A DNA stretch of 64,000 nt. Source: Bacteroidia bacterium (lineage in GTDB: Bacteria; Bacteroidota; Bacteroidia; Bacteroidales; VadinHA17). The notes beneath the pieces were generated by a model, which did not search any database, was not told the DNA's origin, and saw only the letters and a list, made by a program, of their open reading frames with translations. Position 1 is the stretch's first letter, and each line of letters starts with the position of its first letter. A program made the translations under genes and the position numbers. Positions 24,401-60,718 of this stretch are shown one piece after another. The stretch covers positions 44,827 to 108,826 of the forward strand of contig JAPLDX010000056.1 in the NCBI GenBank assembly GCA_026391215.1, read 5' to 3'.

Positions 24401-27400
24401 TACATAGTAGGTCCCGAATGCTGCAAAATTAGGCGTATAGGTTGTCGCTGTGGCCCCTGAAATTGTCTGATCATAAGGACCTCCGCTTATTGTTGAATAC
24501 TTCCACTGCCTCGATGTCGGTGTGCTTGACTCGGTGACTGTCAGTACAGTGCCGTTCTGATTTACTCCTAAAACCTGATCGGCTACCGGAGCAATGGAAT
24601 TCGAGAAGGCAACTGTAAATGAGCCTTCAGTTGCAAAGGTTGATCCCGCAAAATTGTTGTCTAGCGCCTGTACACTCCAGTAATATGTACCAGCTGTAAG
24701 CTTTTTTATTGTCCAGGAATTGGTTTGAGTACCTCTCTGAACGATTCTCCGATATCCTCCGGGCAGGGCTGCCATGGGAGATTTTTTGTTCACCGAGCCT
24801 GCAGTGGTTCCTATATATACATTATAGGTGAGAGCATTCTGCGTGGTTTTTGTATCGGTCGATTTGTTCCAGCTTAATGTTACTTTGTTTGCTCCAAGAC
24901 TTGCCTGGAGATTTGTGGGTGCTGTCGGAACGGTATTCGCCGGTGATGTGTTATTCTTGTACACCTTTGAAACACGCCCGGAAGAGCTTAGGTAACCGGC
25001 CAGTAAAACATCCAGATCCCCGTCATTGTCATAATCTCCCAGGGCCACAGAAGATGAGTACACTGCTGCGAGGGAGTATCCTGTCAGGGCATTAGTGATA
25101 TCAATAGTCGTGTCTGTGTCATTACGGTAGATTTTTGCTATATAAGAACCTAAGATGTCGTCCCAACCGTTTAAAATAATATCAAGATCACCGTCATTAT
25201 CAAGGTCACCCCAGACAGAACTGCCATTATATATCCCTGGCAAATCTGCATTGATTTCGGTGAAAACGCCTGCGTTGTTTTTATAGATTTTTGATATTCC
25301 ACCTCCGGTAATCAGGATATCTAGGTCACCATCGCTGTCATAATCTCCCCAGGCAGCAGAGCCACCTGATATTCCCTGTAAACCTGCATTAATATCAGAA
25401 AAAATGCCATTGTCATTCCTGTATATTATTGAATTCCAGCTGCCCGTTAACAGGATATCCAGGTCGCTGTCATTGTCATAATCACCCCATACAACAGAAC
25501 TGCCGCTGACTCCGGATAAACCTGCATTGATATCTGTGAAAACTCCTGCATCGTTCCTGTAGATTTTTGAAACAGAATTTGATCCGTCATAACCCGTTAA
25601 TAAAATATCCAGGTCACCATCATTATCATAATCACCCCAGGCTACTGAACCTTCATAAACTCCGGTCAAACCTGCATTAATATCTGTAAAAGTGCCTGCA
25701 TCGTTCCTGTAAATCTTCGATATATAATTCAAGCCAGAGCTATAGTATCCACCTGTCAATAATAAATCCAGGTCGCCATCATTATCGTAATCACCCCATG
25801 CAGCAGCACTCCATTCAACTCCTGTTAAACCTGCGTTAATATCATTATAAACGCCGAGATCATTCCTGTAAATCCTGGAAATATATCCCGAATTCGAGTA
25901 TCCTGTCAGTAAAATATCCAGGTCGCCATCGTAATCATAATCACCCCATACTACCGAACAATTATCTACACCTGTTAAAGCGATCCCTTTCTGTTCTGCA
26001 AAGGCAGAAACACTTATTTTCACCTCATTGGTCGCATAATCAATCGCATTTTTTGACGATACACAAACCACATAGTAGGTACCGAATGCAGAGAAATTAG
26101 GCGTATAGGTTGTTGCTGTGGCTCCTGAAATTGACTGATCATAAGGGCCTCCGCTTACTGTCGAATACTTCCACTGCCTCGATGTCGGTGTGCTTGACTC
26201 AGTAACTGTCAGTAAAGCGCCGTTCTGATTTATTCCTAAAACCTGATCTGCCTCAGGAGCAATGGAATTTGTGAAGGCAATCGTAAATGAGCCTTCAGTT
26301 GCAAAGGCTGATCCTGAAAAATTGTTGTCTATCGCCTGTACGCTCCAGTAATATGTGGCTGCTGTAAGCTTTTTTATTGCCCATGAATTGTTTTGAGTAC
26401 CTCTTTGGACTATTCTCCTGTATCCTCCGGGAAGGGCTGCCATTGGGGATTTTTTGTTCACCGAGCCTGCAGTTGTTCCTATATATACATTATAGGTGAG
26501 TCCGTCCTGTGCGGTTTTTGAGTCTGTTGATTTGGTCCAGCTTAATGTCACCTTGTTCGATCCAAGACTTGCCTGGAGATTCGATGGAACCGCTGGAACA
26601 ACATTTGCGGTCAGAGAATTATTTTTATAGATCTTCGAAATATAACCTGAAGAGCCACTACCGGTCAGTATTATGTCAAGATCGCCGTCGTTATCATAAT
26701 CGCCCCAGGCTGCTGAGCTGTTAGAAGCTCCTTCAATCGGTTCCTCAATATCAGTAAAAACACCGCTGTCATTCCGGAATATTTTGGAATAACCGGCACC
26801 TGTCAGCAGAATATCCAGGTCACCATCATTATCATAGTCGCCCCAGGTTGCAGAACCATAGTTTATTTCAGCTAAACCTGCATCTATTCCGGTGAAGACT
26901 CCTGCATTGTTGTTATAGATCTTTGATACGCCGCTTCCGGTAAGCAGGATATCGAGGTCACCATCGCTATCATAATCTCCCCAGGCAGCAGAACCACCGT
27001 ATGTTCCTTCCAACCCTGCATTAATATCGGTGAAAATGCCATTGTCGTTCCGGTATATTTTTGAATTCCAGCCGCCTACTAACAGGATATCCAGGTCACC
27101 ATCGTTATCATAATCGCCCCATGTAACAGAACCATAACTGACTCCGGTTAAACCAGCATTGATATCGGTAAAAACGCCTGCATCGTTCCTGTAAACCTTT
27201 GAAATAATATGCCATTCAGTGTCATAATATTCACCAGTTAATAATATATCCAGATCACCGTCGTTGTCATAATCGCCCCAGGCTACTGAACTGCCGTTAA
27301 CTCCGGTCAAACCTGCACTGATATCCGTGAAAACACCTGCATCGTTCCTGTATATTATTGAAACATAATTTGATCCGCTATGGCCTGATAATAAAATATC

Positions 27401-30400
27401 CAGGTCGCCATCATTATCATAGTCGCCCCATGCGACAGAACTCCTGTACACTCCTGTTAAGCCAACACTGTCATCCGTGAAAACACCTGCATCGTTCCGG
27501 TATATTTTTGAGCTGTAACCTGATCCGTTATCACCAGCCAATAAAATATCCAGATCACCGTCGCTGTCATAATCACCCCAGGCTACAGAGCCTCTATTAA
27601 TTCCCGTTAAACTTATCCCTGAGGGTTCAACAAAGGCAGGAACACTTATTTTCACTTCATTGGTCGTATATTCAATTGCACTTTTTGTAGCCACACATAC
27701 TACATAGTAATTCCCAAATACTGAAAAATTAGGCGTGTAGGTTGTCCCTGTGGCCCCTGCAATTGTCTGATTATAGGGACCGCCGCTCACAGTGGAATAT
27801 TTCCATTGTCTCGATGCAGGGGTGCTTGATTCAGTCACTGTAAGTACAGAGCCGTTTTGATTTAGCTTCAATATCTGAGCCGTATCAGGAGAAATGGAAT
27901 TCGAGAAGACAACAGTAAATGAGCCCTCAGTTGCAAAAGCCGATCCTGCAAAATTATGGTCTATTGCCTGTACACTCCAGTAATATGTTCCTGCTGCAAG
28001 CTTTTTTGGCATCCAATTATTTCCCTGGATCAATCCTCTCTGGACAATTCTCCTGTATCCACCTGGCAGGGCTGCCATGGGAGATTTTTTGTTAATTGTT
28101 CCGGCAGCAGCGCCAATATAAAGATTATACGAAAGACCATCCTGGGGTGTTTGTATATCTGTTGTTTTGCTCCACGAAAGTGTTACTCCGCTTCCTGTAA
28201 CATTTGCAGCCAGGCCTGAAGGCTTAACAGGAGCGGTATTCAGTACAGAATTATTGTTTTTGTATATTTTTGATACAGGCCCTTCACCTGAGGTACCTGT
28301 TAGTAAAATATCCAGATCACCATCGTTATCGTAATCACCCCAGGCCGATGAACCTGTCTGAACCTTTTCTAAATACGAAAAAACCTCTGTAAAGACGTTA
28401 TTGTTGTTCTGTATGATTTTAGATATTAATCCGTCGTAGGTAGTACCGGTCACTAAAAAATCCAGGTCGCCGTCGTTGTCATAATCGCCCCAGTCTACTG
28501 AACCCTGATAAAAGTTAGGTAAGGAGTAATCTATTGAAGAAAAAGCCCCGGCATTATTGTTGAATATTCTCAAATTATAAACAGTTGACCATAAAACATC
28601 GAGATCACCGTCATTATCATAATCGCCCCAGGCAACTGAAGCGGCTGGATTGTTGTAGAATCCCGGATTAATACCGGTAAAAGAACCATTATCGTTCCTG
28701 TATATTCGTGAAAATCCATTAATTGCATCATTGTAACCAGCAAGCAAGATGTCAAGGTCGCCGTCATTATCATAATCGCCCCAGTCAACTGAACTTTCCC
28801 TTGCCCCGATCAGGCCGGCATTAATATCTGTAAAAATCCCCGCATCATTCCTGTATATTTGTGAGATACATAAGTTACTGGCATTATAGCCGGTCAACAG
28901 AATATCGAGGTCGCCGTCATTATCATAATCAGCCCATGCAACTGAGCCAATGTGCACTCCAGGTAAATAAACACTGATATTCTTAGTGAATGTACTATCG
29001 CCATTATTGTCCCAGATTTCAGAAACCGGACCAGCGTCTGAATAACCAGTTAATAAAATATCCAGGTACCCGTCATTATTATAATCACCCCATGCCACTG
29101 AACTTTCATCGACCCCTGGCATTAAAGTTCCTGCCAGCTCTGTAAATTTATTGCTGCCACCGTTCTTATAGATCTTGGAAACCCTGATGCCGGAACCTGT
29201 CCTGCCCGTCAATAAAATATCCTGATCCCCATCATTATCATAATCACCCCAGGCAACAGAACTATTATAGACACCTGTTAAGCTTATCCCTGTCTGTTCA
29301 ATAAAGTTTGTAACAATTATTTTTACCTGGTTGCTGGTATATGCCGTTCCACCAAATATCGATTCACATACAATATAATAAATGCCATCGGCCGGGAAGG
29401 ATGTAATACATGTGGTTCCGGTAGCACCTGCAATCGCCTGAGTGTATGGGCCACCGCTTACGGTTGAGTATTTCCACTGGCGCGAAGTGGGAGTGCTTGA
29501 TTCCGTCACAGTTAATGTCGCGCAGTTTTGATTTTTTAATATAGCCTGTTCACCAGTCGGAATAATTGAATTTGAAAAGGGAATCGTAAAAGTGCCTTCA
29601 GCAGCAAAAGCTGAACCGGCAAAACCGTAGTCGATAGCCTGTACACTCCAGTAGTACGTGGCTGCCGGCAATTTCTTCACGAAATATGTATTGGACTGAA
29701 TATTTCCCCTCCGGACTATTTTTCTGTATCCGCCCGGTACAACTGCCATTGGTGAACATTTGTTCACTGTACCAGTAGCGGTGCCTATATAGATGTTGTA
29801 CGAGAGACCGTCCTGCGATGTTTGAGTATCAGTTGATTTGCTCCATGTAAGAGTTGCTTTGCCACCCGTTACACTTGAACCAAGCCCTGAAGGTGATGCA
29901 GGAAAGGTATTTGCAACAGCACTGTTATTTTTATAGATCTTCGAATAACCACTGCCGGTCAGTAAAATATCAAGGTCGTTATCCTTGTCATAATCCCCCC
30001 ATGCAACGGAGCTGTAAGAAACACCGGTTAATCCTGCGCTGATATCGGTAAAAGTACCTGCATTGTTGTTGTAAACCTTAGAAATATCAGCAGAACCGGA
30101 ATATCCTGTAAGCAGAATATCCAGGTCGCCGTCGTTATCATAATCACCCCAGGCAGCAGAGCTATATCGTACTCCGGTTAAACCTGCATTAATATCCGTG
30201 AATGTGCCGCTGCTGTTATTGTATATCCTTGCATTATATCCGGAATCCCAGTTATACCCTGCCAACAGAATATCGAGATCGCCATCTTCATCATAATCGC
30301 CCCATGAAGCAGAACTGTAGGTTACACCCTCTAATCCGGCATTAATATCAGTGAAAATGCCACTGTCATTACGGTATATTTTTGCAATCGGGCCATCCAT

Positions 30401-31018
30401 AAAAGAATAACCAGTCAGAAGAATATCCAGGTCACCGTCATTATCATAATCACCCCATGCTACTGAACTGTTATCAACTCCTGTTAAACCGGCCTCAATA
30501 TCAGTAAAGATACCATTGTCGTTGCGATAAACCATTGATATATAAGTACCCTGAAGGCTGCCAGTAAGCAATATATCAAGGTCCCCATCATTGTCGTAAT
30601 CTCCCCATGCAACTGAACCGTAATTGACTCCAGCTAACCCCGCATTTATATCGGCAAACGTTCCGGCATCGTTCCTGTAAATTTTCGAAGTGTTGCTTCC
30701 TGTCAGTAAAATATCCAGGTCGCCGTCATTATCATAATCACCCCATGCTGCAGAACTGAAAGAAACTCCTGTTAAGCCGGGAGCTGCTATAGCGCTGAAG
30801 GCTCCTGCTGTATTCTGGTAGATTAAAGCATTCCCGCTTCCCGTCAAAAGAATATCAGGATCCCCATCATTGTCATAATCGCCCCAGGCCACTGAGCCTC
30901 TTGAGATCCCTGTTAATATAATTGGCTGCTCGGTAAATGCCTGGCTGAAAAGATCAGGCGCCGCAAGGCAAAACAATAATAATCCCAGACAGGTGAATCG
31001 GAGTAAAGGAGTTCTCAT
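18449..31018 (-). CDS. Giant (4189 aa) T9SS-secreted FG-GAP/VCBS-repeat protein
   Basis: Signal peptide. I count 48 copies of the W-G-D-Y-D-N-D-G-D-L-D-I-L-L-T-G calcium-binding blade motif in seven modules (7,7,7,7,6,7,7). After each of the first six modules come an FN3-like domain (LSWSKSTD...YYWSVQAID) and an Ig-like domain (SRQWKYSTVSGGPY). Three further FN3 domains and a type-A CTD (YVYPNPASKNITL) close the protein. Confidence 0.9.
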   Translation of the reverse strand: MRTPLLRFTCLGLLLFCLAAPDLFSQAFTEQPIILTGISRGSVAWGDYDNDGDPDILLTGSGNALIYQNTAGAFSAIAAPGLTGVSFSSAAWGDYDNDGDLDILLTGSNTSKIYRNDAGTFADINAGLAGVNYGSVAWGDYDNDGDLDILLTGSLQGTYISMVYRNDNGIFTDIEAGLTGVDNSSVAWGDYDNDGDLDILLTGYSFMDGPIAKIYRNDSGIFTDINAGLEGVTYSSASWGDYDEDGDLDILLAGYNWDSGYNARIYNNSSGTFTDINAGLTGVRYSSAAWGDYDNDGDLDILLTGYSGSADISKVYNNNAGTFTDISAGLTGVSYSSVAWGDYDKDNDLDILLTGSGYSKIYKNNSAVANTFPASPSGLGSSVTGGKATLTWSKSTDTQTSQDGLSYNIYIGTATGTVNKCSPMAVVPGGYRKIVRRGNIQSNTYFVKKLPAATYYWSVQAIDYGFAGSAFAAEGTFTIPFSNSIIPTGEQAILKNQNCATLTVTESSTPTSRQWKYSTVSGGPYTQAIAGATGTTCITSFPADGIYYIVCESIFGGTAYTSNQVKIIVTNFIEQTGISLTGVYNSSVAWGDYDNDGDQDILLTGRTGSGIRVSKIYKNGGSNKFTELAGTLMPGVDESSVAWGDYNNDGYLDILLTGYSDAGPVSEIWDNNGDSTFTKNISVYLPGVHIGSVAWADYDNDGDLDILLTGYNASNLCISQIYRNDAGIFTDINAGLIGARESSVDWGDYDNDGDLDILLAGYNDAINGFSRIYRNDNGSFTGINPGFYNNPAASVAWGDYDNDGDLDVLWSTVYNLRIFNNNAGAFSSIDYSLPNFYQGSVDWGDYDNDGDLDFLVTGTTYDGLISKIIQNNNNVFTEVFSYLEKVQTGSSAWGDYDNDGDLDILLTGTSGEGPVSKIYKNNNSVLNTAPVKPSGLAANVTGSGVTLSWSKTTDIQTPQDGLSYNLYIGAAAGTINKKSPMAALPGGYRRIVQRGLIQGNNWMPKKLAAGTYYWSVQAIDHNFAGSAFATEGSFTVVFSNSISPDTAQILKLNQNGSVLTVTESSTPASRQWKYSTVSGGPYNQTIAGATGTTYTPNFSVFGNYYVVCVATKSAIEYTTNEVKISVPAFVEPSGISLTGINRGSVAWGDYDSDGDLDILLAGDNGSGYSSKIYRNDAGVFTDDSVGLTGVYRSSVAWGDYDNDGDLDILLSGHSGSNYVSIIYRNDAGVFTDISAGLTGVNGSSVAWGDYDNDGDLDILLTGEYYDTEWHIISKVYRNDAGVFTDINAGLTGVSYGSVTWGDYDNDGDLDILLVGGWNSKIYRNDNGIFTDINAGLEGTYGGSAAWGDYDSDGDLDILLTGSGVSKIYNNNAGVFTGIDAGLAEINYGSATWGDYDNDGDLDILLTGAGYSKIFRNDSGVFTDIEEPIEGASNSSAAWGDYDNDGDLDIILTGSGSSGYISKIYKNNSLTANVVPAVPSNLQASLGSNKVTLSWTKSTDSKTAQDGLTYNVYIGTTAGSVNKKSPMAALPGGYRRIVQRGTQNNSWAIKKLTAATYYWSVQAIDNNFSGSAFATEGSFTIAFTNSIAPEADQVLGINQNGALLTVTESSTPTSRQWKYSTVSGGPYDQSISGATATTYTPNFSAFGTYYVVCVSSKNAIDYATNEVKISVSAFAEQKGIALTGVDNCSVVWGDYDYDGDLDILLTGYSNSGYISRIYRNDLGVYNDINAGLTGVEWSAAAWGDYDNDGDLDLLLTGGYYSSGLNYISKIYRNDAGTFTDINAGLTGVYEGSVAWGDYDNDGDLDILLTGYDGSNSVSKIYRNDAGVFTDINAGLSGVSGSSVVWGDYDNDSDLDILLTGSWNSIIYRNDNGIFSDINAGLQGISGGSAAWGDYDSDGDLDILITGGGISKIYKNNAGVFTEINADLPGIYNGSSVWGDLDNDGDLDIILNGWDDILGSYIAKIYRNDTDTTIDITNALTGYSLAAVYSSSVALGDYDNDGDLDVLLAGYLSSSGRVSKVYKNNTSPANTVPTAPTNLQASLGANKVTLSWNKSTDTKTTQNALTYNVYIGTTAGSVNKKSPMAALPGGYRRIVQRGTQTNSWTIKKLTAGTYYWSVQALDNNFAGSTFATEGSFTVAFSNSIAPVADQVLGVNQNGTVLTVTESSTPTSRQWKYSTISGGPYDQTISGATATTYTPNFAAFGTYYVVCASIKNAIEYASNEVKISVPAFAEQTGITLPGLDDCSVVWGDYDSDGDLDILLTGYSNSDFLSRVYRNDLGVYNDINAGLIGVVESSAAWGDYDNDGDLDILLTGYYWNSGDYYISKIYRNDAGTFTDINAGLTGVSSSSVALGDYDNDGDLDILLAGYNGSISVSKIYRNDAGIFTDITADLTGISDGSAAWGDYDSDGDLDILITGSGISKVYNNNAGIFTEINAGLTGVSESTAVWGDLDNDGDLDIILNGYNNTLSSYITKFYRNATDTIIDITNTLTGYSLAAVYNSSVALGDYDNDGDLDVLLAGYLSSYGRVSKVYKNNTSPANTVPAAPTNLQASLGANKVTLSWNKSTDTKTAQNGLTYNLYIGTTAGTVNKKSPMAALPDGYRRIVRSGATQTNSWTINRLSAGTYYWSVQAIDNNFAGSAFATEGTFTVAFSNSIAPVADQVLGVNQNGTVLTVTESSTPTSRQWKYSTVSGGPYDQSISGATGTTYTPNFAAFGTYYVVCASIKNAIEYASNEVKISVPAFAEQTGIALTGVDLGSVAYADYDNDGDLDILLTGNSGSGAISKIYRNDLGVYNDISAGLTGVYRSSAAWGDYDNDGDLDILLTGYVGSNGISRIYRNDAGTFTDIAAGLTGIWDGSAVWGDYDNDGDLDILLTGYDGSTDISRIYRNDAGIFTDINGGLAGTGGGSVAAWGDYDNDGDLDILLVGSWNSLVYRNDNGIFTNINAGLTGVTNCSAVWGDYDSDGDLDILLTGGGISKIYRNNAGVFTDMNAGLIGIYESTAAWGDLDNDGDLDIILNGWDDNLDSYITKFYRNDGDTTIDITNTLTGYSLATVYNSSVTLGDYDNDGDLDVLLTGYLISTGSVTKVYKNNTSAANTVPAAPTNLQASLGANKVTLSWNKSTDTKTAQSGLTYNVYIGTIAGSVNRKSPMAALPGGYRRIVQRGAAQANSWTIKSLTAGTYYWSVQAIDNNFAGSAFAAEGSFIVSYSNSISPVTDQSLLINQNGTVLTVTESSTPTSRQWKYSTVSGGPYDQTITGATGTTYTPGFSSYGTYYVVCVSTKNAIEYATNEVKISVPAFTEQTGLNLTGIYRGSVAWGDYDSDGDLDILLTGDDGSNYISKIYRNDAGVFTDIIAGLKGVYRSSVAWGDYDNDGDLDILLTGEYYNSGWFYVSNIYQNDAGVFTDKNAGLAGVYDGSVALGDYDNDGDLDILLTGYDGSNSVSKIYRNDAGVFTDITAGLTGVNASSVAWGDYDNDGDLDILLTGNSDSRIYRNDTGVFTNINAGLAGVSNSSVAWGDYDNDGDLDILLTGSGYSKIYKNDAGIFTDINAGLTGINYGSVTWGDYDNDGDLDILLTGSGYSKIYKNDAGVFTDINAGLTGINYGSVTWGDYDNDGDLDILLAGSYTSKVYKNNSIVANTVPSAPTNLLASALSVNKVSFTWNKATDSKTPQNTLTYNIRIGTAAGGSSIVGPMASVSTGFRRIPAIGNAELRSNGYTITNLAPGKYYWSVQAIDQAYAGGAWAAEGQFNLLAAPVASAATNIAETSFTSHWSASTGATGYKLDIATDSTFTTIVTGYNSKDVGNITSANVSGLTSGSIYYYRLRAYNAGGTSIVYSNVIKTITLGIPAAPVATDATSVVQTSFTANWNSSPNANSYELDVSTSNTFSSFLPGFSNIYVGNVTSYSVTGLTANTVYYYRVRASNSYGASLNSGTITVTTLMNPPATPAGLTASSCNNLVTLSWTAITDANFLRYIIFGGTSASPTTKIDSTSTISSVAKTISGLTPGVTYYFRVTAVNTVGMASSYSSEVSAKVKKGVVPKIKAKWNNVLICYNVGDSLTSWQWFKGGIAISGATKQYYVTAKSPGSYYVWATDKNGCQNPSAAINITGTKSAYVYPNPASKNITLSISGDDYGRTLIRFYNSTGVKVIELQTEKLDFKLDSEIALPGLQSGTYTIEVLVNNELFSTSKIVVIK
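20100..30950. repeat. In-frame coding super-repeats (1533-1668 nt) and 135-138-nt blade repeats inside the giant gene
   Basis: The marker TGTTCTGCAA recurs at 22791, 24324 and 25992 (periods 1533 and 1668 nt). Long stretches such as 22791-23100 and 24324-24640 are nearly identical. Confidence 0.85.
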
Positions 31019-50807: not shown

Positions 50808-52043
50808 TCAGACAAGAAATTCCCTGGGAACATTTCTCAATCTTGAAACATCTTCAATTCTTTCTTTTATATTGAATCCGGCTGTGCATTTTACACTGCA
50901 GTTCAGGCAGTTACTGCATGAATCAGCGGGGAGACCTGCTTCCATAAGAGTATGCTGTGCATGTTTAAAATTCCTGTAACCATATGCATACATATAGCTC
51001 CGCATTACGGTTGGAATTTCCAGATTATAAGGGCATTGCGGAATGCATTGACGGCATTGGTGACAATATAAACCATTTTCAGAATCCAGGCTGGCAAGAC
51101 TGAGATCTTTCAGCTCCTGATCTGTCATCTTAAGATTTTTGATCATCGCAAGATTCTTCTGCAATTCTTCCATTGAGGACATGCCTGATACAATTGAGGA
51201 TATGTTTTCGTTCTGAAGCACCCATTTAAGGGCAGTATCAGAATTCAGCGGATTTACCTGGTTTTTATTGCGGAACGCTCCTGCTGTAGTTTTCATTGCC
51301 ACTATGCCCACTCCTGCTTTTGCTGCATAGGCAAGAGCTTCGTTCATCGATTCTTTATTCTCGGTCTTGTAATTATAACCAATCATCGCCACATCATAAA
51401 CTTTACTATCGGCAGCTGCGTGGAGAGCTTCTTCAATGCCTCCATGAGATGCAATACCCAGGAATTTTGTTTTACCCTGTTTCTTAAGGTCCTGTAAAGC
51501 TTTCAGGAGGGATTCATTCAACATTACATCCCTCTTCCCGGCATACGGGAGCAAAAATATATCAACATAGTCAAGTCCGAAACGACCCAGGCTGGCTGTA
51601 GCCTTCCTTACATATGCCTCTGCATTAAACTGTGCCGGCAGATTACCTGTTCGTGTATCCATCTCATCGGGAGGTGCAGCTGTTCCAATAAAGAATGAAT
51701 CTCTTGGCAAACCTTTCAATCCTTCGCCAACAAGTATTTCATTATTCCCCTCTCCATAATAAGTAGCAGAGAAGAAAAGCTTCAGACCAGCATAATATGC
51801 CGACTTCACAAAAGCAGGAGTGTTTGCTGATCCCGTTCCCATGCTGATAAGGGGAGTTTTTATCCCTGTTCTCCCTAGCACACGGACAGGAAGTTCCGGA
51901 ATCTTATCCTGTTCTTCATTTCCACGTACTGAAGCTTTAAGAGATCCGGGGATCAGTGCCATACCTGATAAACCAAGCATGCTCTTTTTTAGGAATTCAC
52001 GACGCTGACTATTTTTCATTGGTTTTGATTTATTGATATTCAA
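50808..52043 (-). CDS. Tat-exported aldo/keto reductase with C-terminal 4Fe-4S ferredoxin domain
   Basis: Twin-arginine signal QRREFLKKSMLGLSG, an AKR body, and C-terminal CHQCRQCIPQCP plus CSNCLNCSVKC. Confidence 0.75.
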   Translation of the reverse strand: MNINKSKPMKNSQRREFLKKSMLGLSGMALIPGSLKASVRGNEEQDKIPELPVRVLGRTGIKTPLISMGTGSANTPAFVKSAYYAGLKLFFSATYYGEGNNEILVGEGLKGLPRDSFFIGTAAPPDEMDTRTGNLPAQFNAEAYVRKATASLGRFGLDYVDIFLLPYAGKRDVMLNESLLKALQDLKKQGKTKFLGIASHGGIEEALHAAADSKVYDVAMIGYNYKTENKESMNEALAYAAKAGVGIVAMKTTAGAFRNKNQVNPLNSDTALKWVLQNENISSIVSGMSSMEELQKNLAMIKNLKMTDQELKDLSLASLDSENGLYCHQCRQCIPQCPYNLEIPTVMRSYMYAYGYRNFKHAQHTLMEAGLPADSCSNCLNCSVKCTAGFNIKERIEDVSRLRNVPREFLV

Positions 52044-53799: not shown

Positions 53800-53946
53800 A
53801 AATAGTTAATTTTCAGATTATTATGAGATAGCTTAAAATATTGTTACAACTGTTTTTGTTAATAATTAAAAATCTGTTTTTATTCTGAAAACAATTCAAA
53901 CTTCGTAAATTTATTTATAATCTAAAAGAGGAAAAACCTTATCTTT

Positions 53947-55035
53947 TTAATTTATCAGAACACTATTCACCATTTTACTGTGGCATTTCAATACCCGACT
54001 TTTTTCAATATCTCTAAGGCATATGCCATTGCCTAAGCAATATTTATAATTTTTACAGCTTGCGCATTGATTTGTTTTTGTCCAGTCTCTATTTCTAAAC
54101 GGCTGATATTTAGTAGTCCACACGTCTATCAAACTCTCTTGAAGTATGTTTCCTTGAATCAATTTTCTATTGATATTTGGACAAGCAGAGATAGAACCGT
54201 CATGTAATATTGATGCAATATTTATTCCTGCCCTGCAAAAATAGAATTCATCTCTCACCACTCCTTCATAGTTCTCTAAAAATCCGTCACAACCATAGTT
54301 TATGTTTATTCCCTTTCGTTTTTTCGCATTCTTAATAAACTCTAATGTTTGGATTAATTCTTTTCCATTAATATTCAATTCTTTATGTTTGCTTGCTCTC
54401 CCAATCGGGTCAATTGTAAATAACCTCCAATTCTTCACATTTAAGCCAATAAGCAAGTCATAAATTTTATCGAGTTCACCAATATTTCTTAATGTAACGC
54501 AGGTTGCAACATCAAATGTAATATTCTCATATTTTGAAACTAAACTTATCGCCTTAACGGTTCTATCGAAACTCAGCGCATTATTTCTAAGCCAATTGTG
54601 ACTATCCTTTAGTCCGTCTAAGCTAATTGTTAGTGAAGTTAATCCACTTTCGATTAAATTAGTTAATCGTTCATTATCCAAAAGAAAACCATTTGTTACT
54701 AATCCCCACTTATAGCCTAATTTCGAAATTTCTGAGCCGAAAATCTCAATGTCTTTGCGAATCAATGGTTCTCCACCTGTAATTACAACATGAGGTAGTT
54801 TATTACCAACCAGCTTTTTAATTCTAGCTAATTCAATTACTATTAGCTGATAAGGTAAATCATTTGAGTTTTCAATACCGCAATTACTTCCACAATGCAA
54901 ACAACTGAAATTACATTTCAGGGTGCACTCCCAGAACAAATATTTTAAATCATGTAGTTGAGTTTGAGATTTTCTAAATGACTGGAATAGCCTTAAACTC
55001 AGCTTTTTTTGCAAATTCATTTTATTTTGCACCAT
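53947..55035 (-). CDS. Radical SAM / SPASM-domain enzyme
   Basis: CNFSCLHC (CxxxCxxC) near aa 41-48, ITGGEP, and a C-terminal Cys-rich SPASM region (CRAGINIASILHDGSISACPN ... CASCKNYKYCLGNGIC). Confidence 0.85.
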   Translation of the reverse strand: MVQNKMNLQKKLSLRLFQSFRKSQTQLHDLKYLFWECTLKCNFSCLHCGSNCGIENSNDLPYQLIVIELARIKKLVGNKLPHVVITGGEPLIRKDIEIFGSEISKLGYKWGLVTNGFLLDNERLTNLIESGLTSLTISLDGLKDSHNWLRNNALSFDRTVKAISLVSKYENITFDVATCVTLRNIGELDKIYDLLIGLNVKNWRLFTIDPIGRASKHKELNINGKELIQTLEFIKNAKKRKGININYGCDGFLENYEGVVRDEFYFCRAGINIASILHDGSISACPNINRKLIQGNILQESLIDVWTTKYQPFRNRDWTKTNQCASCKNYKYCLGNGICLRDIEKSRVLKCHSKMVNSVLIN

Positions 55036-55433
55036 TACTTCGGATTTAAGACAAAATCGCAGTTCTCTAACTCGTTCGGAAGTAATTCCACTGTTTTAGT
55101 CGAATTCTGAAATTCACCATTATCAGCACCGTCAATATCTTTTGCTTCAACTGTGTATTGTTGTGGTTCTAAGTACTCAACAACATAGTTACCAGTATTA
55201 TCTGTTTTAATGGTTCTTGAATTTTCTTTTATTGAAATTTCGATATCCTTAATTGCCTCGCCCGAACCTGAAGATGTTACTTTACCTTTTATAGTTCCTG
55301 TAATATCTGCAATATCACCATATTTGCAACACATGGTCAATAAAGAAATGCTACCAAATCCAAATGCAAAACCTGCATTTTTTAAAATTTTCCGCAGCAG
55401 ATAGTCTTTTACTCTAATTTTTTGGTTCTTCAT
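55035..55433 (-). CDS. Radical-SAM-associated putative lipoprotein (transthyretin/CarboxypepD_reg-like beta-sandwich)
   Basis: 132 aa. Long basic N-region, then SISLLTMCC (lipobox followed by a second Cys), then GTIKGKVTSSGSGEAIKDIEISI...TDNTGNYVV. Its stop overlaps the rSAM start (TAATG). Confidence 0.6.
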   Translation of the reverse strand: MKNQKIRVKDYLLRKILKNAGFAFGFGSISLLTMCCKYGDIADITGTIKGKVTSSGSGEAIKDIEISIKENSRTIKTDNTGNYVVEYLEPQQYTVEAKDIDGADNGEFQNSTKTVELLPNELENCDFVLNPK

Positions 55434-55536
55434 AAATCATTCAATTTTTAATGATACACAAGGTACTTGTATACATAATTTGGGGGTAAAGAGTTACTTT
55501 CTTGCATCAATATTTGTTCGAATATAATCATACTTT

Positions 55537-56655
55537 CTAATCTATCTTTTTAATTGTATAGAACTCAGAAAAGTTAATGCTATATCCTAAATCCCTTTGA
55601 GGAAAGAATATCAATCCCATATGCAAAGATTCAATCAAATCTGATTTACTCCAACTTTCTCCACCATCTTTAGTTTCATAGCAAATGCTGCCTTTAAATG
55701 TTGGAAAATCACCGCCCTCATAAACCGCAACATTTTCAATATTAAATCCTTCATTTTCATCATAAAAATGCAATGTTCCAAAATTTGTAAATGGAAAATC
55801 AGTTTTAATCCAGTTTAAACCACCGTCAACCGTTTTGTACACAGCCGTTATGCCATCAATAAATCCAATATTCTCGCTGTAGAAGTATATGTGATTAACA
55901 TCATGGTATGCTTCAATGGGTGTGCTTATTGTTTCCCAATTATAACCATAATCTAAACTTTTAAATATTTTTTGGTTTTCGCCGGCAATAAAAATTATAT
56001 TATCGACATAAAATAATTTATCATCGGAAGGTCTGATTGGTAAATAAATCAAATTCCAGTGTATTCCCCCATCTGAAGTAAGCGCGATATGTTCATTCTT
56101 TGAATACGGATAATTTGGAGTTTTAATAAGTGCAACACCATTTAAAGTATTAAAGAATTTTAATGATAATATTCGTGAATAATCAGGGAAAAATGTCTTT
56201 GTCCAAGTTTCTCCGCCATCGGTAGTTTTCAATAATACAGAGCCTTTGTCACAATCTGCATCCAAACAACCCCCCATTGCCTGACTTGATGCAAATCCGA
56301 CATTTTCATCAAGAAAAAATACGGAATGCAAGTGTAATGTAGTTCCAGAATTCAGTTCATGCCATGTTTTCCCTGAGTCTACTGTTTTAAGTATATCTCC
56401 ATTATATCCAACGACAAAACCAACACTTGAATTTAAGAAAAATATGTCCCGTGGATTTATGTCAAAACCGTAAATCGATTTTGAAATCACCAAATCATTT
56501 ACAATAATGGTATCCCCATTAATAGAAACATAAACAGACTTGTCTTCATGGTTAATAGGTTCTTTAGTACAATCGAATAATATTGTTGCAGATAAAAGAA
56601 TCGCAATGTTTAATTTAAGAATAGTAAATACTATATCAAAAGTTGGTCGATGCAT
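55537..56655 (-). CDS. BNR/Asp-box beta-propeller lipoprotein (Ycf48/sortilin-like)
   Basis: Lipobox ILFDC. Six Asp-box-like motifs: VDSGKTW, TDGGETW, SDGGIHW, LDYGYNW, VDGGLNW, KDGGESW. Confidence 0.7.
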   Translation of the reverse strand: MHRPTFDIVFTILKLNIAILLSATILFDCTKEPINHEDKSVYVSINGDTIIVNDLVISKSIYGFDINPRDIFFLNSSVGFVVGYNGDILKTVDSGKTWHELNSGTTLHLHSVFFLDENVGFASSQAMGGCLDADCDKGSVLLKTTDGGETWTKTFFPDYSRILSLKFFNTLNGVALIKTPNYPYSKNEHIALTSDGGIHWNLIYLPIRPSDDKLFYVDNIIFIAGENQKIFKSLDYGYNWETISTPIEAYHDVNHIYFYSENIGFIDGITAVYKTVDGGLNWIKTDFPFTNFGTLHFYDENEGFNIENVAVYEGGDFPTFKGSICYETKDGGESWSKSDLIESLHMGLIFFPQRDLGYSINFSEFYTIKKID

Positions 56656-56671
56656 TTTTTTGTATTTTCAT

Positions 56672-57124
56672 TTATTTCATTTGTTTTCCAAGATAAGTTC
56701 CATCTGGCTGCTTTACTTTTATGGTGAAGTTTTCGGGTAAAGAATCTCTATTACATAGAATTTTACGATTCAGATACACCATAATATCTGGACAAATAGT
56801 GGCATTGACCTGAACATTTTTCCACGCTTCAATGATTACATCCCGATTTTGTCTGGAAATATTAAAGCGACTGAAACTTGAGCATCCATTGGAACTGATT
56901 GTTCCCCAAAAATTAATCTCGAACAATCCATTATATAGTAGTGTTTCGGGTGTTTCAGGGTAGCTAATTGTAAGACTATCAACTTTTATCAGGTATTCTT
57001 TATAGATTGATTCTTTGATTGATTCTTTTGTACAGGATGTAAAGGATGTAATTAGTCCTGAGACAAATAATAGCTTAGCAGTAAATAGAAAATTATACTT
57101 ACAAAAATTACATTTTGGTTTCAT
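56672..57124 (-). CDS. Small lipoprotein, unknown function
   Basis: 150 aa, signal plus lipobox (ITSFTSC-TKES). Lies 16 nt upstream of the propeller gene. Confidence 0.5.
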   Translation of the reverse strand: MKPKCNFCKYNFLFTAKLLFVSGLITSFTSCTKESIKESIYKEYLIKVDSLTISYPETPETLLYNGLFEINFWGTISSNGCSSFSRFNISRQNRDVIIEAWKNVQVNATICPDIMVYLNRKILCNRDSLPENFTIKVKQPDGTYLGKQMK

Positions 57125-57249
57125 ATTCTTTTGATTGTAGCTGATGTTTATTTACTTATCATATTTACATTTTCGAGGAACTTTTTGTTTTTTGCATTGA
57201 ATCCTTTGCCAAAACATAATCAATAATCAGGAGTATGATAATAGATTAA

Positions 57250-57630
57250 TTAATATTTCAATTTGCCACTACTTAGAGAAACTACTAAAGTGTCGTTGTC
57301 TTTATAAGCCATAACTTTAGTGTTTACTTCAAATTCTCCGCTTGGGACAGAGGTTACCCTAAAAGAAATTACTAAATCTTTATTAAAATTCTTTTTTGAA
57401 TCCAATTCAACATTTGCATCAAACATCACACCGTCTCCATAAGTTCTGACAGTCACTTTATTGCCATTTGTAGAACCCTCTAATTTCAGGTTTACCATTC
57501 CTCCAGCATTACCTAATCTAGTGAGATACCATTGAGAATTTGTAATGTTAAGTGTAGCAGGACTATTATTTTCTTTTTCAGAACAAGAAGCAAATACAAT
57601 AATTGCCAAAAGAAATACTATATTTTTCAA
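57250..57630 (-). CDS. Small lipoprotein, unknown function
   Basis: 126 aa, signal plus lipobox (IVFASC-SEKEN), beta-rich sequence. Confidence 0.55.
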   Translation of the reverse strand: MKNIVFLLAIIVFASCSEKENNSPATLNITNSQWYLTRLGNAGGMVNLKLEGSTNGNKVTVRTYGDGVMFDANVELDSKKNFNKDLVISFRVTSVPSGEFEVNTKVMAYKDNDTLVVSLSSGKLKY

Positions 57631-57700
57631 AATTTATGTATTATTTAATAATACAATTATCATAATCGAGAATCCAATTTTTTTCATTGTATTACCAACG

Positions 57701-58768
57701 TTATCTTTTCTTTAATGTATATATCTTATAATTACTTATACAGTAAGCAAAATCATTTGTTACAAAATTAATTGTACCAAATCCAAATCTTTTTAATAAA
57801 TCAGACTTTGTCCAGTTTCTCCCGCCATCTGCTGTAGTATAAACGTATGTTCCAATAAAAGAAGGGAAATCGCCACCTATATATGCGGAAGTATCAACAA
57901 TCCAAATTCCGTATTTATAATTACAAAAATGGAAATCCTCAAAAGGCTGTGATGGAGTTGAAAAGAACTTGAATGGAAATTTAATTTCTTGCCATGTATT
58001 TCCACCGTCAGTAGTTTTGAACTTTTTATCTACACAATCCACAAAACCAGTTTTTTCATCAATAAAATAGAATCCACGAATGAAATTTGCTGGTGTTTTT
58101 GGTATATTTATTGTACTCCAAGAAAAACCCTTATAAGTACTTTTATAAATTCTTTGATTCGTTCCTGTTGCATAACTTAATCCCCCCAAATAAAACAACC
58201 CTTTAAATGATTGGTTTAACTCCAGGTTATTATCAGCCCACCAACTTTCTCCACCATCGGAAGTTCTCATAAGATGTGCACCTGAATTATCATAATTTAT
58301 TGCAGTGGCATATAGAGAATCAAAAAATTTCATCGAATACAATCTATATGCAGTAGTGTAATGTCGTTTTGTCCAATGCTTACCACCATCAACTGTTTTA
58401 TACAAAGTGCCATAGTAATCGCCATTAAGGACATTCCCAATTCCATATATAAATCCAGTAGAATCATTTATAAATGATAAGGTAGTTGTCGTTACTCCTA
58501 ATGAATCTTTTTCAATATCTGATTGTTCCCATGACCTTGCATAATCTGTAGTTTTTAGCAGATAACCATTTGAGCCAATAATATATCCGGTTTTTGAATC
58601 AATAAAATCAACATCTTCAGGATATAACCATCTATAATTAAAATCAATTGAGTCTAATTGCCATCCTTTAATTATATCATTGGGAAAATCGTATTCATCC
58701 TTTATACAATTTGAAAGAGTAGTAGTTATGAAAGTAATAATTAACAAGAAATAGATTCTGTATTTCAT
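57701..58768 (-). CDS. BNR/Asp-box beta-propeller lipoprotein, paralog of 55537-56655
   Basis: I place the start at MKYRIYFLLIITFITTTLSNC (ATG 58768), which overlaps the upstream stop as TAATG. Motifs: TDYARSW, VDGGKHW, SDGGESW, TDGGNTW, ADGGRNW. Confidence 0.7.
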   Translation of the reverse strand: MKYRIYFLLIITFITTTLSNCIKDEYDFPNDIIKGWQLDSIDFNYRWLYPEDVDFIDSKTGYIIGSNGYLLKTTDYARSWEQSDIEKDSLGVTTTTLSFINDSTGFIYGIGNVLNGDYYGTLYKTVDGGKHWTKRHYTTAYRLYSMKFFDSLYATAINYDNSGAHLMRTSDGGESWWADNNLELNQSFKGLFYLGGLSYATGTNQRIYKSTYKGFSWSTINIPKTPANFIRGFYFIDEKTGFVDCVDKKFKTTDGGNTWQEIKFPFKFFSTPSQPFEDFHFCNYKYGIWIVDTSAYIGGDFPSFIGTYVYTTADGGRNWTKSDLLKRFGFGTINFVTNDFAYCISNYKIYTLKKR

Positions 58769-59187
58769 TATTTGATTTTCCTGAATGTAAGGCATGATTT
58801 TTTAGTATCAATGTATTTGCAGAACTTGCCAATATTAATTGTCAAATTTGGTTCGTCAAACTTGAAATGGTAAGTTCCTCCTTCCCTTGAACTCGATAAC
58901 CCACTTATTACCGAAATACTATCTTCAGTAATTTTGTACCAATAAGCATCACTACCTATCTTTGGTAGCCAATAGCCATTGGTCATCGCAAAACCTCTGG
59001 ATAGACAAAAGTAGCCTGATATACTGTCTGAATGAAAACTAATTGTATCAGTTTTAGTACTTGTTTCGACCCATGTGCCCGTTAGTCCCTTCGGAAGTGT
59101 GCCTGGGTCTGGGAAATCATCTTTCTTTTCACAGTTTGTTAGAAAGCAGACGAAGATAAGGAGAACAATGAATTTTACGTGTTCCAT
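58768..59187 (-). CDS. Small lipoprotein, unknown function
   Basis: I place the start at MEHVKFIVLLIFVCFLTNC-EKKDD (ATG 59187), giving 139 aa. Confidence 0.5.
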   Translation of the reverse strand: MEHVKFIVLLIFVCFLTNCEKKDDFPDPGTLPKGLTGTWVETSTKTDTISFHSDSISGYFCLSRGFAMTNGYWLPKIGSDAYWYKITEDSISVISGLSSSREGGTYHFKFDEPNLTINIGKFCKYIDTKKSCLTFRKIK

Positions 59188-59218
59188 TTGTTTGCTGCTT
59201 AAGGTGTAATAAAACTTA

Positions 59219-60055
59219 TTATTGGTAATATTCATATCTGCAACAATACCATTCTCCATACTTGGTCGGATGATATCCTATGTATTCAATAACATTCCCA
59301 TCTTTATACGTTGTTTTATCGGAAATAAAATCTCCATACGGACCGTCATAGTATGATTCAACAATTACTTTATCATCTGATTCAGAATAAGTAAACGTTA
59401 TTTCAACTAAAATTGACCAATTTCGGTCATATTCAATAGTCGTTATAATGTTTGAACCTTCATAAGTATAAATTGTATAAATACCTTCAGGATTTTCAAT
59501 CTTTTTTATTTTGTTTTTATTTGAATCATATTCATAAATAATGCTCCACTCTGTACTATTTTCGAAACTATAATCATATTCAGACATTAAAAGATTATTC
59601 GCAAAAGAATATATAATACTATCTGTCAATTCATTTTTGATATATCTTTTTTCGACTATTTTATTCCCCACATAACTATATTTATATATATAGATTAAAC
59701 TAAAATCAGATTCAGTCTGGTCAGAATAATTTTGCCCTTCCATTGCATAAAATTTCTTATTTAATAAAACTCCTTTATCAGAGTATTCATATGTATATGA
59801 AGCATAAACAGGATTAGGATAGTTCGAAAGTAATTTCCTCTTTAAATTCCAGTCTTCATCATATGAATAAGAAATAAAACTATATGGTATAGTATCAGAA
59901 GAAGATGAATAATTGTACTGGGTCTTTATTTTACCAATACTGTGTACATTATATTCGTCCTCCGGAATAATGTTGTTGTTCTCAGGAAGAAGGTTGTCTT
60001 TCTCACAGGAATAAAAAATAAGAGAAAAGATAAATATCAATGCTATCTTTCTCAC
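59219..60055 (-). CDS. Tyr/Glu/Ser-rich repeat lipoprotein (YD-like beta-hairpin repeats)
   Basis: 278 aa. Lipobox LIFYSC-EKDN. Recurrent Y-x-Y-(D/E)-x-x-x-N/K short repeats (YSYDEDWNL, YTYEYSDKG, YEYDSNKNK). Confidence 0.55.
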   Translation of the reverse strand: MRKIALIFIFSLIFYSCEKDNLLPENNNIIPEDEYNVHSIGKIKTQYNYSSSSDTIPYSFISYSYDEDWNLKRKLLSNYPNPVYASYTYEYSDKGVLLNKKFYAMEGQNYSDQTESDFSLIYIYKYSYVGNKIVEKRYIKNELTDSIIYSFANNLLMSEYDYSFENSTEWSIIYEYDSNKNKIKKIENPEGIYTIYTYEGSNIITTIEYDRNWSILVEITFTYSESDDKVIVESYYDGPYGDFISDKTTYKDGNVIEYIGYHPTKYGEWYCCRYEYYQ

Positions 60056-60718
60056 GATATTAGCTTTAGGTCATAAATATCACTGCAAAAATTAAGCCAG
60101 TTTTTACTTCTAAAATTCGAACATTATAGCCTGAAAGTCAATAAATACCGCTTTCTCTTTTCTTAATTTGATATTTGAAGACATCCAAATAAGAAATGAA
60201 CCATTATTTGTATTTTCTTATTAATAGTTTTACCTTAACGCGTCTGAAAATACAAAACCAATGCTGTTTATAACATGATGATTTTTAATAAATTTAATTT
60301 TATAACAATTAGAGTTTGTCATTATACTTGAAAGTACATATGAATATACCCGCTTACTGCTTGGTTTTATTTCCAATTGGCGCATATACTGACTAATATA
60401 ATAATCAATGTTGAAAGTGCTGCTAATTAGTCTGCTGAAAACACCGCATCACGTGGTATATTATAACTTTCACCCTTACCCGTATTAGTTACATAGTAGC
60501 GTAAATAAGTTTTCTTATCTTTGCCAGGAGCAACGAATTTTAAAGTAAATTTCTTAATTTTCATAACGATAATATTACGATGTTTTTATATACAGATTCA
60601 GAAAACAGTAAAAAATCATATAACATTAATTATTAACAACATAACAAACATGCAAGATTAATTTCAAGTAGCAAAAGAACTTCGCAAATTTACCTATAAT
60701 AACAAAATTAGAAACCCA

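Follow-up and report, generated by a model that had tools for sequence, protein, structure and literature searches.

Spliceases, that is PlpX and its relatives, are radical S-adenosylmethionine (SAM)/SPASM enzymes that excise tyramine at X-Y-G sites (PMC11414181, PMC10533398), the published target of this chemistry (PMC11414181, PMC10533398, PMC9811515). The splice tags PIRPLYGLPI and AVAAGYGVVFPG have a Y-G-aliphatic-(x)-Pro context in common, and splicing also acts on whole tagged proteins (PMC11414181, PMC10533398). Published spliceases cover several phylogenetic types; hundreds of 'binary' systems lack a Y/RRE protein, and a leader α-helix of the substrate binds the enzyme (PMC11414181). 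For PlpX, PcpX and RhaX, structure predictions are reported to place the splice-site segment beside the SAM cluster. Splice products bearing a ketoamide inhibit serine and cysteine proteases (PMC11626197). The present work concerns a gene pair located in a 64,000-nucleotide stretch of Bacteroidia bacterium DNA (GenBank assembly GCA_026391215.1, contig JAPLDX010000056.1, positions 44,827 to 108,826; hereafter the window), which encodes a radical SAM/SPASM enzyme of 362 residues and an adjoining pre-lipoprotein of 132 residues (hereafter the partner). The conservation of this pair across genomes, and of an X-Y-G motif in the partners, makes it likely that the enzyme modifies the partner at or near the Tyr-Gly (YG) of this motif.

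Both proteins belong to families that are defined in NCBIfam as hypothetical equivalogs, TIGR04133 for the enzyme and TIGR04134 for the partner, a pairing that a preliminary description of the locus had named correctly. The enzyme scored 456.9 bits (cutoff 425) over residues 8–355, corresponding to positions 1–348 of the 350 of the profile, and the partner scored 45.1 bits (cutoff 39.8, a narrow margin) over residues 35–122. The two genes are adjoining, overlapping and on the same strand, and nothing in them is different in kind from the family. The annotation of the pair, an ordinary member of a curated family, is therefore already known. The family definition gives neither reaction nor site, and no reaction is assigned by annotation even though the family is abundant and present in the human-gut genera Bacteroides, Phocaeicola, Parabacteroides, Prevotella and Alistipes. 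What the present analysis adds is that the likely modification site is moved to X-Y-G, together with a link to splicease chemistry. The earlier statement that the chemistry of the family is uncharacterised is, in the light of the published XYG target (PMC11414181, PMC10533398, PMC9811515), probably outdated.

The likeness to the spliceases (PlpX/PlpY/PlpA, PcpX, RhaX/RhaA, RcsX, RasX) comprises a radical SAM/SPASM enzyme gene beside a putative substrate gene, an X-Y-G followed by an aliphatic residue and Pro, sites that are sometimes repeated, more than one substrate gene for an enzyme, a binary make-up that lacks a Y/RRE protein, as in type II systems, and, with moderate support, a phylogenetic neighbourhood linked to XYG. 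By contrast, the putative substrate of TIGR04133 enzymes is no Nif11/NHLP or GG-leader peptide but a protein that has a Sec/lipoprotein signal and contains a folded domain of the transthyretin type; the cassette contains no leader peptidase or exporter gene, the enzyme carries an N-terminal helix of its own, and splicease chemistry is putative for this family.

The maturases anSME/ChuR (TIGR03942) are likewise radical SAM/SPASM enzymes of ca. 360–370 residues without an RRE domain, and are among the best structural matches of the window enzyme. anSME matures exported sulfatases in the cytoplasm before export, and QhpD likewise acts on an exported subunit. Modification of a full-length protein with its export signal, in the cytoplasm and before export, is what is proposed here for the window enzyme, and the idea that this would be an unusual maturation route was overstated, since anSME and QhpD both act in this way and anSME is a close structural match (template modelling (TM) score 0.70). 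The window system differs in that its substrate would be encoded beside the enzyme and lacks the C/S-x-P/A-x-R sulfatase motif.

A conserved enzyme and lipoprotein pair

An alignment of the enzyme was scanned against one genome per species, and 80 loci were retained. Co-occurrence of the two neighbours, which had been put forward as a check on their relationship, was evident: the pair is kept in, among others, Bacteroidota, Fibrobacterota, Neomarinimicrobiota, Hydrogenedentes, Chitinivibrionales and a spirochaete, Treponema saccharophilum, whose pair is a true one (TIGR04133, 451 bits; TIGR04134, 43.7 bits). An iterated partner profile built in this analysis, to which the window partner scores 88.7 bits, matched same-strand open reading frames (ORFs) adjoining the enzyme in 65 of the 80 loci. 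The other 15 carried at the same place a short ORF (63–105 residues) of similar N-terminus, in which an acidic tail replaces the C-terminal β-sandwich described below. A simpler search, for same-strand genes adjoining the enzyme in which a YG lies no more than 45 residues behind a signal-like hydrophobic stretch, found a partner in 76 loci, the four exceptions being truncations at contig ends, against a background of 7.5% among the other genes of the same loci. The pairing of enzyme and partner is far beyond chance.

The partner gene is mostly located directly upstream of the enzyme gene, with an overlap of 1 or 4 nucleotides or a gap of 17 nucleotides or less; overlaps of 1 or 4 nucleotides were counted in about 30 related loci. 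The tight coupling noticed in the window, where the overlap is of one nucleotide, thus extends to most related loci. Between one and five tandem partner genes were present per locus. No third conserved gene family was found beside the pair in the surveyed loci, where a protease, an exporter and an RRE were sought. The three closest relatives of the window pair lie in three mutually unrelated neighbourhoods, and the window pair itself is placed at the end of a 6.9-kb island of low GC content. Combined, the unrelated neighbourhoods, the lack of a third conserved gene and the low-GC island indicate that the pair behaves as a mobile, self-sufficient two-gene cassette. The enzyme-substrate logic of the preliminary description is supported, and the two genes are best explained as a TIGR04133/TIGR04134-type cassette that is complete in itself and consists of an enzyme and its putative substrate.

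More than 5,700 protein clusters matched the enzyme at E ≤ 1e-30, a count that may take in related radical SAM/SPASM families, and many homologues are titled 'TIGR04133 family radical SAM/SPASM protein' or 'radical SAM enzyme (rSAM/lipoprotein system)'. Cultured carriers include Parabacteroides distasonis (NZ_OY725757), Phocaeicola massiliensis DSM 17679 and Maribellus maritimus. An NCBI entry identical to the partner sequence is titled 'radical SAM-associated putative lipoprotein [Bacteroidia bacterium]'.

The X-Y-G motif and the relatives of the enzyme

Residues M34, C35, K37, Y38 and G39 of the partner are invariant in 25 close homologues, and the position between the lipobox Cys and the motif, residue 36, is Ala in 21 of them, Cys in three and absent in one. 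In the 80-species survey, YG was present in 78 of 79 full-length partners and YG.P in 71. Across the family, the residues following the lipobox Cys vary in sequence and in length and then give way to a near-invariant X-Y-G-x-P; X-Y-G(-x-P) comprises the only residues kept over all partner architectures, and the short partners that have no sandwich retain YGxP. The identity of X varies, with Glu (55) ahead of Met (25), Cys (14), Lys (13), Ala (10) and further residues; at +2, Thr, Val, Ser and Pro predominate, and Pro occupies +3 at 111 of the 165 sites. The density of YG in partners was 0.94 per 100 residues, versus 0.26 for other genes and a composition-based expectation of 0.35. The motif is repeated two to three times in some partners (KYGPPP..TKYGAP..TKYGAP in locus L042 and CAYGTPVEYGTP in locus L012). 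In a sizeable share of the partners, the lipobox Cys itself stands at X (QAC-YG-TP, and TSC-YG-MP in Treponema); the partners of loci L005, L019 and L023 carry a signal of the signal-peptidase-I type and contain no Cys at all (VIAQ-YGAPP). Taken together, an invariant short motif, a replaceable C-terminal part, repetition of the motif and multiplication of the gene are what marks a site at which a substrate is recognised or modified. The emphasis first given to a Cys-Cys sequence (C35-C36), near which the modification had been placed, does not agree with this pattern: C36 is not conserved, some partners are free of Cys, and the conserved site is X-Y-G.

The partner begins with MKNQKIRVKDYLLRKILKNAGFAFGFGSISLLTMCC, and its N-terminus reads MKNQKIRVKDYLLRKILKN...LLTMCC. 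By eye, the putative signal peptide has a K/R-rich segment (residues 1–19), a hydrophobic segment (20–34) and the lipobox L-T-M-C35, with an atypical Met at −1; a lipoprotein-type signal with a long basic N-region, as originally described, is thus predicted from the sequence pattern; family partners carry the canonical lipobox LLGF[AS]xC. The window subclade has particulars of its own, namely a long signal peptide, with Cys at position 35, and a spacing from Cys to YG of three residues versus the typical 7–13. Family signal peptides have their Cys at about position 25–29, versus 19–20 in control lipoproteins, and are somewhat more conserved (21.9 versus 16.2 bits), although partners are mutually homologous and this difference is for that reason no proof of a leader role. 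It is at most suggestive of a signal peptide that may function as recognition leader.

An AlphaFold2 model of the partner, computed from a 25-sequence alignment (mean predicted local distance difference test score (pLDDT) 76), showed low-confidence helices at residues 3–23 and 29–37, an unstructured stretch at 38–45 and a confident β-sandwich at 46–129 (pLDDT ca. 88–90). Y38-G39 falls inside the unstructured linker, where an enzyme could reach it. The transthyretin/CarboxypepD_reg-like fold assigned to the sandwich in the preliminary description was corroborated by Pfam (CarboxypepD_reg, PF13620, residues 47–129, 40.4 bits) and by Foldseek, whose best PDB matches were the transthyretin-like domains of carboxypeptidase D/N (1qmu, root-mean-square deviation 1.3 Å; 2nsm; 3mn8; 5aq0). 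A further, lower-ranking match of the sandwich was to the NTE domain found in a SusC-like transporter (9hfj, rank 26). A 441-residue protein (P0100), considered as a possible natural fusion, turned out to be an internal duplication.

Pfam placed a Radical_SAM domain at residues 37–195 of the enzyme (76.9 bits) and a SPASM domain at 267–328 (40.1 bits). The cluster ligands C41, C45 and C48 (CNFSCLHC) and seven C-terminal cysteines (249, 267, 285, 324, 327, 333 and 351) are invariant across 28 homologues, and position 339 is Cys or His within the family. Between 34 and 40 residues precede the CX3CX2C motif in TIGR04133 members, versus 14–17 in clostridial XYG-linked enzymes, and L14, H28, L30 and Y32 are invariant in the homologue alignment. 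The AlphaFold2 model of the enzyme (pLDDT 87.9, predicted TM score 0.89) matched in Foldseek the peptide and protein maturases SkfB, SuiB, PqqE, anSME (4k39, TM 0.70/0.70), CteB and ChlB; EpeE was also found among the crosslinking or epimerising SPASM/twitch neighbours, together with SuiB, PqqE, SkfB and CteB. No splicease structure was found in the PDB. Identity as an anaerobic sulfatase maturase, which had been raised as a possible refutation, was rejected, TIGR03942 being outside the 25 best families of the enzyme and the C/S-x-P/A-x-R motif being absent from the partner. Additional cysteines surround the radical SAM motif (C37-x3-C41-x3-C45-x2-C48-x3-C52, residues 37–52, window 54880–54927); among the same 28 homologues C52 is invariant and C37 is conserved in at least 90%. 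C179 is also invariant and is specific to TIGR04133.

A tblastn search of plasmids ranked first an enzyme of Agathobacter rectalis (31.8% identity, 152 bits), followed by an enzyme of Aureibacter, one of Ralstonia and a TIGR03913 enzyme of Burkholderia. The A. rectalis enzyme scores 235 bits with TIGR04103, 225 with TIGR03913 and 185 with TIGR04133; an unannotated ORF immediately upstream of its gene ends in ...KTSKNLFGPVMYGTGVRM (GPVMYGTGVRM), and a major facilitator superfamily transporter gene follows. Clostridial homologues adjoin GG-leader precursors with four to five XYG repeats and C39-ABC exporters: the precursor of Pseudobacteroides cellulosolvens contains PLYGI five times, and that of Clostridium aceticum four XYGI sites (LKYGI, PLYGI, PKYGI and PMYGI). 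The contention that the partner is not a short precursor of a ribosomally made, post-translationally modified peptide (RiPP) is right for the window protein and does not extend to the family, which grades into partners of 63–105 residues and whose nearest enzyme relatives lie beside GG-leader RiPP precursors.

TIGR03913, the 'GDL motif peptide-associated radical SAM/SPASM maturase', comprises enzymes of the sister clade whose partners have M-Y-G or P-Y-G just before the GDL motif; the DUF1842 partners of the Burkholderia enzymes carry AMYGV and PMYGV at this place. Some DUF1842/DUF1843 partners are proteins of 196–212 residues rather than peptides. These similarities suggest from the sequences that the 'GDL' systems are XYG-directed too. 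The window enzyme, by contrast, scores 98 bits with TIGR03913 against a cutoff of 592, and TIGR03913 partners look cytoplasmic and have no signal peptide.

A neighbour-joining tree was built from 28 sequences and 351 columns, with 100 bootstraps, leaving out AhbD/NirJ, anSME and PqqE. TIGR04133 was monophyletic (100), the clostridial and TIGR03913 enzymes formed one clade (96), and both groups together were set apart (81) from MftC, TIGR04053, TIGR04347 and a further three SPASM enzymes. Only TIGR04133 and the XYG-linked clade have in common W203 and G49, the residue that immediately follows the third cluster Cys; G49 was present in 12 of 12 and 10 of 10 sequences, respectively, versus none of six out-groups.

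Side observations on these relatives concern their precursors. The A. rectalis ORF (L081 3213–3419, plasmid NZ_CP143948.1, ending in ...MFNLEELSLEFVKISELKTSKNLFGPVMYGTGVRM) is a candidate precursor of the spliceotide type, in a Firmicute that is common in the human gut, and the 99%-identity protein cluster of the adjoining enzyme (P0148) has 2132 member sequences. The clostridial precursors are found at L085 2060–2317, L086 2003–2245 and L084 2222–2416, and the enzymes beside them are rSAM-SPASM(-TPR) proteins. TIGR03913 partners at L093 72–1353 (a Burkholderia pseudomallei plasmid) and L082 2653–3366 (Aureibacter) have Tyr-Gly/Ala just upstream of GDL, the sites being ..AMYGVAIQSAAASGDL and ..PMYGVGLQEARASGDL in DUF1842 partners and MIIQPYGAGIREA and MYQVLYAAGIREA in DUF1843 partners.

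Candidate reaction and competing explanations

That the reaction is specifically a tyramine excision of the splicease type, taking place in the cytoplasm at K37-Y38-G39 before Sec/lipoprotein export, has in our judgement an even chance of being correct. In this scheme, the pre-lipoprotein would be produced in the cytoplasm and the co-translated enzyme would engage its N-terminal part, that is the signal-peptide helix and the unstructured linker ahead of the sandwich, acting on the nascent or unfolded protein at K37-Y38-G39. A 5'-deoxyadenosyl radical would start the reaction, in which Tyr loses a tyramine equivalent (C8H9NO, −135.07 Da) by excision and Lys37 would be converted to a ketoamide residue. 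The modified and still unfolded protein would then undergo Sec export, lipidation at C35 and cleavage by signal peptidase II. Recognition may proceed via the signal-peptide helix or, alternatively, via the enzyme's own helix 8–27, which is lacking in the clostridial relatives and may help to dock or activate the substrate. Peptide-type systems have a dedicated leader peptidase and exporter, whose place would here be taken by the general secretion machinery; we propose that the cassette contains neither because both tasks fall to the general lipoprotein pathway.

The expected product is a transthyretin-like domain, anchored by lipid, that would carry an electrophilic ketoamide at a distance of two residues from its anchor. 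As X keeps its amino group and side chain on splicing, C-Y-G members could presumably still be lipidated and cleaved, and in members whose X is the lipidated Cys (..QAC-YG-TP, ..TSC-YG-MP) the ketoamide would sit directly at the lipid anchor. Since ketoamides in spliceotides inhibit Ser and Cys proteases, the product, by analogy, would most likely serve to inhibit proteases while tethered to the membrane, or as a handle with a reactive carbonyl. With Lys as X in the window protein, Lys-specific Ser/Cys proteases would be the suggested targets.

The full proposal, a splicease system in which the general lipoprotein pathway has taken the place of the RiPP leader, leader peptidase and exporter and which displays a ketoamide warhead on a lipid-anchored domain, is possible although doubtful, and it would be novel only if the 2022 splicease survey has no description of it. 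That survey sought YG-rich ORFs beside all rSAM-SPASM proteins and reportedly found 189 genera, 27 confirmed pairs and 939 predicted (PMC10533398); it may already cover the TIGR04133 family. A search of the open-access literature returned no paper naming TIGR04133 or TIGR04134, the sole match for the latter being a typographical error for the model of the type-B C-terminal domain belonging to type IX secretion systems (T9SS), and nothing relevant for splicease or ketoamide in combination with lipoprotein.

If the splicease chemistry is true, backbone-spliced ketoamide lipoproteins would be a common envelope component of Bacteroidota and related phyla, and β-amino-acid-containing, covalently reactive surface or periplasmic lipoproteins would be widespread in gut and environmental Bacteroidota and their relatives, where they could plausibly inhibit proteases in tethered form. 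In that case, leader removal and export in a RiPP-like modification system would fall to the general secretion pathway, and such compact, accessory-free enzymes could help protein engineering, an aim stated for binary spliceases (PMC11414181).

Several observations weigh against this interpretation. One TIGR04134 copy has NYSVP in place of YG, the window subclade has no Pro after YG (KYGDIAD), and part of the conservation of YG could stem from the start of the sandwich fold. Among the related systems, the precursor of C. pasteurianum has LYS/LYA, not LYG, a variant site grammar, and no XYG-linked relative examined was shown as a splicease in the literature searched. Support for kinship with XYG-linked enzymes, 81% in a tree from which the AhbD/NirJ, anSME and PqqE out-groups were left out, is moderate. 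The enzyme is not a member of TIGR04103 (109.2 bits, cutoff 725), the Nif11-class model that we take, from its name, to be the PlpX family, the InterPro entry stated for PlpX being IPR026482 only; TIGR04103, AhbD, NirJ2 and TIGR04053 are not separated by hidden Markov models for the window enzyme (98–118 bits). The low TIGR04103 score is no exclusion of splicease activity, because the spliceases published to date span several phylogenetic types.

The leading alternative is that YG, or a residue next to it, is indeed where the partner is modified by the enzyme, through another radical chemistry: a Tyr-centred C-C or C-O crosslink of the cyclophane type, epimerisation at Cα, hydroxylation, or a thioether that joins the lipobox Cys and a Cα in its vicinity. 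The pairing and the YG-site evidence fit such reactions equally well, the structural neighbours SuiB, PqqE, SkfB, CteB and EpeE crosslink or epimerise, and the score below the TIGR04103 cutoff is compatible with them. However, the three-residue ring of a cyclophane needs a β-carbon at +2, where some partners have Gly (YGGP, L005 and L070), and a Cys-dependent link is excluded for the Cys-free partners of L005, L019 and L023. Moreover, Y-G with a variable X and followed by aliphatic/Pro is exactly the published splice-site grammar, and the nearest relatives lie beside spliceotide-like repeated XYG cores. A different reaction at YG is unlikely, without being far-fetched.

It is distinctly improbable that the two proteins are co-expressed without being enzyme and substrate, the former acting on a small molecule or cofactor and the latter binding or delivering something outside the cytoplasm. 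The heme-pathway families AhbD (118 bits, second-best in NCBIfam) and NirJ2 (117 bits) are the top non-family matches of the enzyme, and the partner is a folded domain, not a peptide, both of which would fit this view. Nevertheless, these scores are far under the cutoffs of 500, so that membership of the heme pathway was rejected, no heme or cofactor genes are linked and only the two genes are conserved. Tandem partners, a replaceable C-terminal part and an invariant, repeated short motif are hallmarks of a substrate, and the closest structural relatives of the enzyme are peptide or protein maturases.

A thioether or other crosslink at the Cys-Cys following the lipobox is very improbable: C35-C36 is present in the window protein and SPASM enzymes include sactipeptide and ranthipeptide synthases, such as the Foldseek matches CteB and SkfB, but conservation contradicts it, position 36 being mostly Ala or even deleted in close homologues, the residues past the lipobox Cys being variable family-wide and some partners being Cys-free. 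For similar reasons, assignment as a sactipeptide or ranthipeptide maturase was rejected: apart from the lipobox Cys, no conserved Cys exists in or near the motif region.

Feature coordinates and genomic setting

The features of the pair are collected in Table 1. The ORFs, CNFSCLHC motif, SPASM cysteines and TAATG overlap first described were all present in the sequence, in which the partner ORF precedes the enzyme ORF on the minus strand.

Table 1. Features of the enzyme and partner genes in the window
Feature	Position in window	Strand	Basis
Radical SAM/SPASM enzyme, 362 residues, TIGR04133 member	53947..55035	-	ORF, NCBIfam, Pfam, AlphaFold2, Foldseek
SPASM auxiliary-cluster region (C249, C267, C285, C324, C327, C333, C/H339, C351)	53983..54291	-	Pfam and conservation
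CX3CX2C cluster motif (C41 N F S C45 L H C48), then G49	54892..54915	-	Sequence reading
N-terminal helix, residues 8-27, before the catalytic core, TIGR04133-specific	54955..55014	-	AlphaFold2 model
TAATG stop/start overlap coupling both genes (partner TAA and enzyme ATG with one base in common)	55033..55037	-	Read from sequence
Partner pre-lipoprotein, 132 residues, TIGR04134 member	55035..55433	-	ORF, NCBIfam, identical NCBI entry
Transthyretin-like/CarboxypepD_reg β-sandwich, residues 46-129	55047..55298	-	Pfam, AlphaFold2, Foldseek
K37-Y38-G39, X-Y-G motif, proposed modification site	55317..55325	-	Alignment of close homologues
Signal peptide, long basic n-region, lipobox L32-T33-M34-C35; possible recognition 'leader'	55329..55433	-	Sequence reading

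The low-GC island (window 53800–60700, ca. 6.9 kb) has a GC content of 0.26–0.35, versus 0.40–0.47 in its flanks, and all its genes are on the minus strand; it was possibly acquired horizontally. The island also holds two paralogous BNR/Ycf48-like β-propeller proteins (55537–56655 and 57701–58795), two small lipoprotein-like ORFs between them (56672–57124 and 57250–57630), and ORFs without Pfam match at 58768–59259 and 59219–60055. When neighbourhoods were compared, the BNR/Ycf48-like and other island genes were not found beside the pair in close relatives. A scan for sigma-70 promoters was uninformative (14 sites versus 11.0 ± 3.1 expected), and a terminator scan found none.

In one close relative (L089 5264–12116), the pair is inserted between a pair of extracytoplasmic function sigma factor and FecR anti-sigma genes and a gene for a TonB-dependent transducer, which itself has an N-terminal CarboxypepD_reg domain. 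In Treponema saccharophilum, a perfect 12-nucleotide inverted repeat (L083 1743–1754 and 2601–2612; CTGAAACTGAAA / TTTCAGTTTCAG) surrounds an Mpi-family DNA invertase gene, and its right arm stops 10 nucleotides before the lipoprotein start codon; the repeat may be a phase-variable switch, but with a chance expectation of ca. 0.04 for this stretch the observation is marginal.

Elsewhere in the window, a 4189-residue ORF (18449–31018, minus strand) contains about 30 FG-GAP repeats together with fn3 domains and ends in a T9SS sorting domain (Por_Secre_tail), by which the host can be recognised as one of the Bacteroidota that possess a T9SS. At 50808–52043 (minus strand) lies a gene for an aldo/keto reductase to which a 4Fe-4S dicluster domain is fused at the C-terminus; the N-terminus of the protein resembles a twin-arginine signal (SQRREFLKKSMLGLSG).

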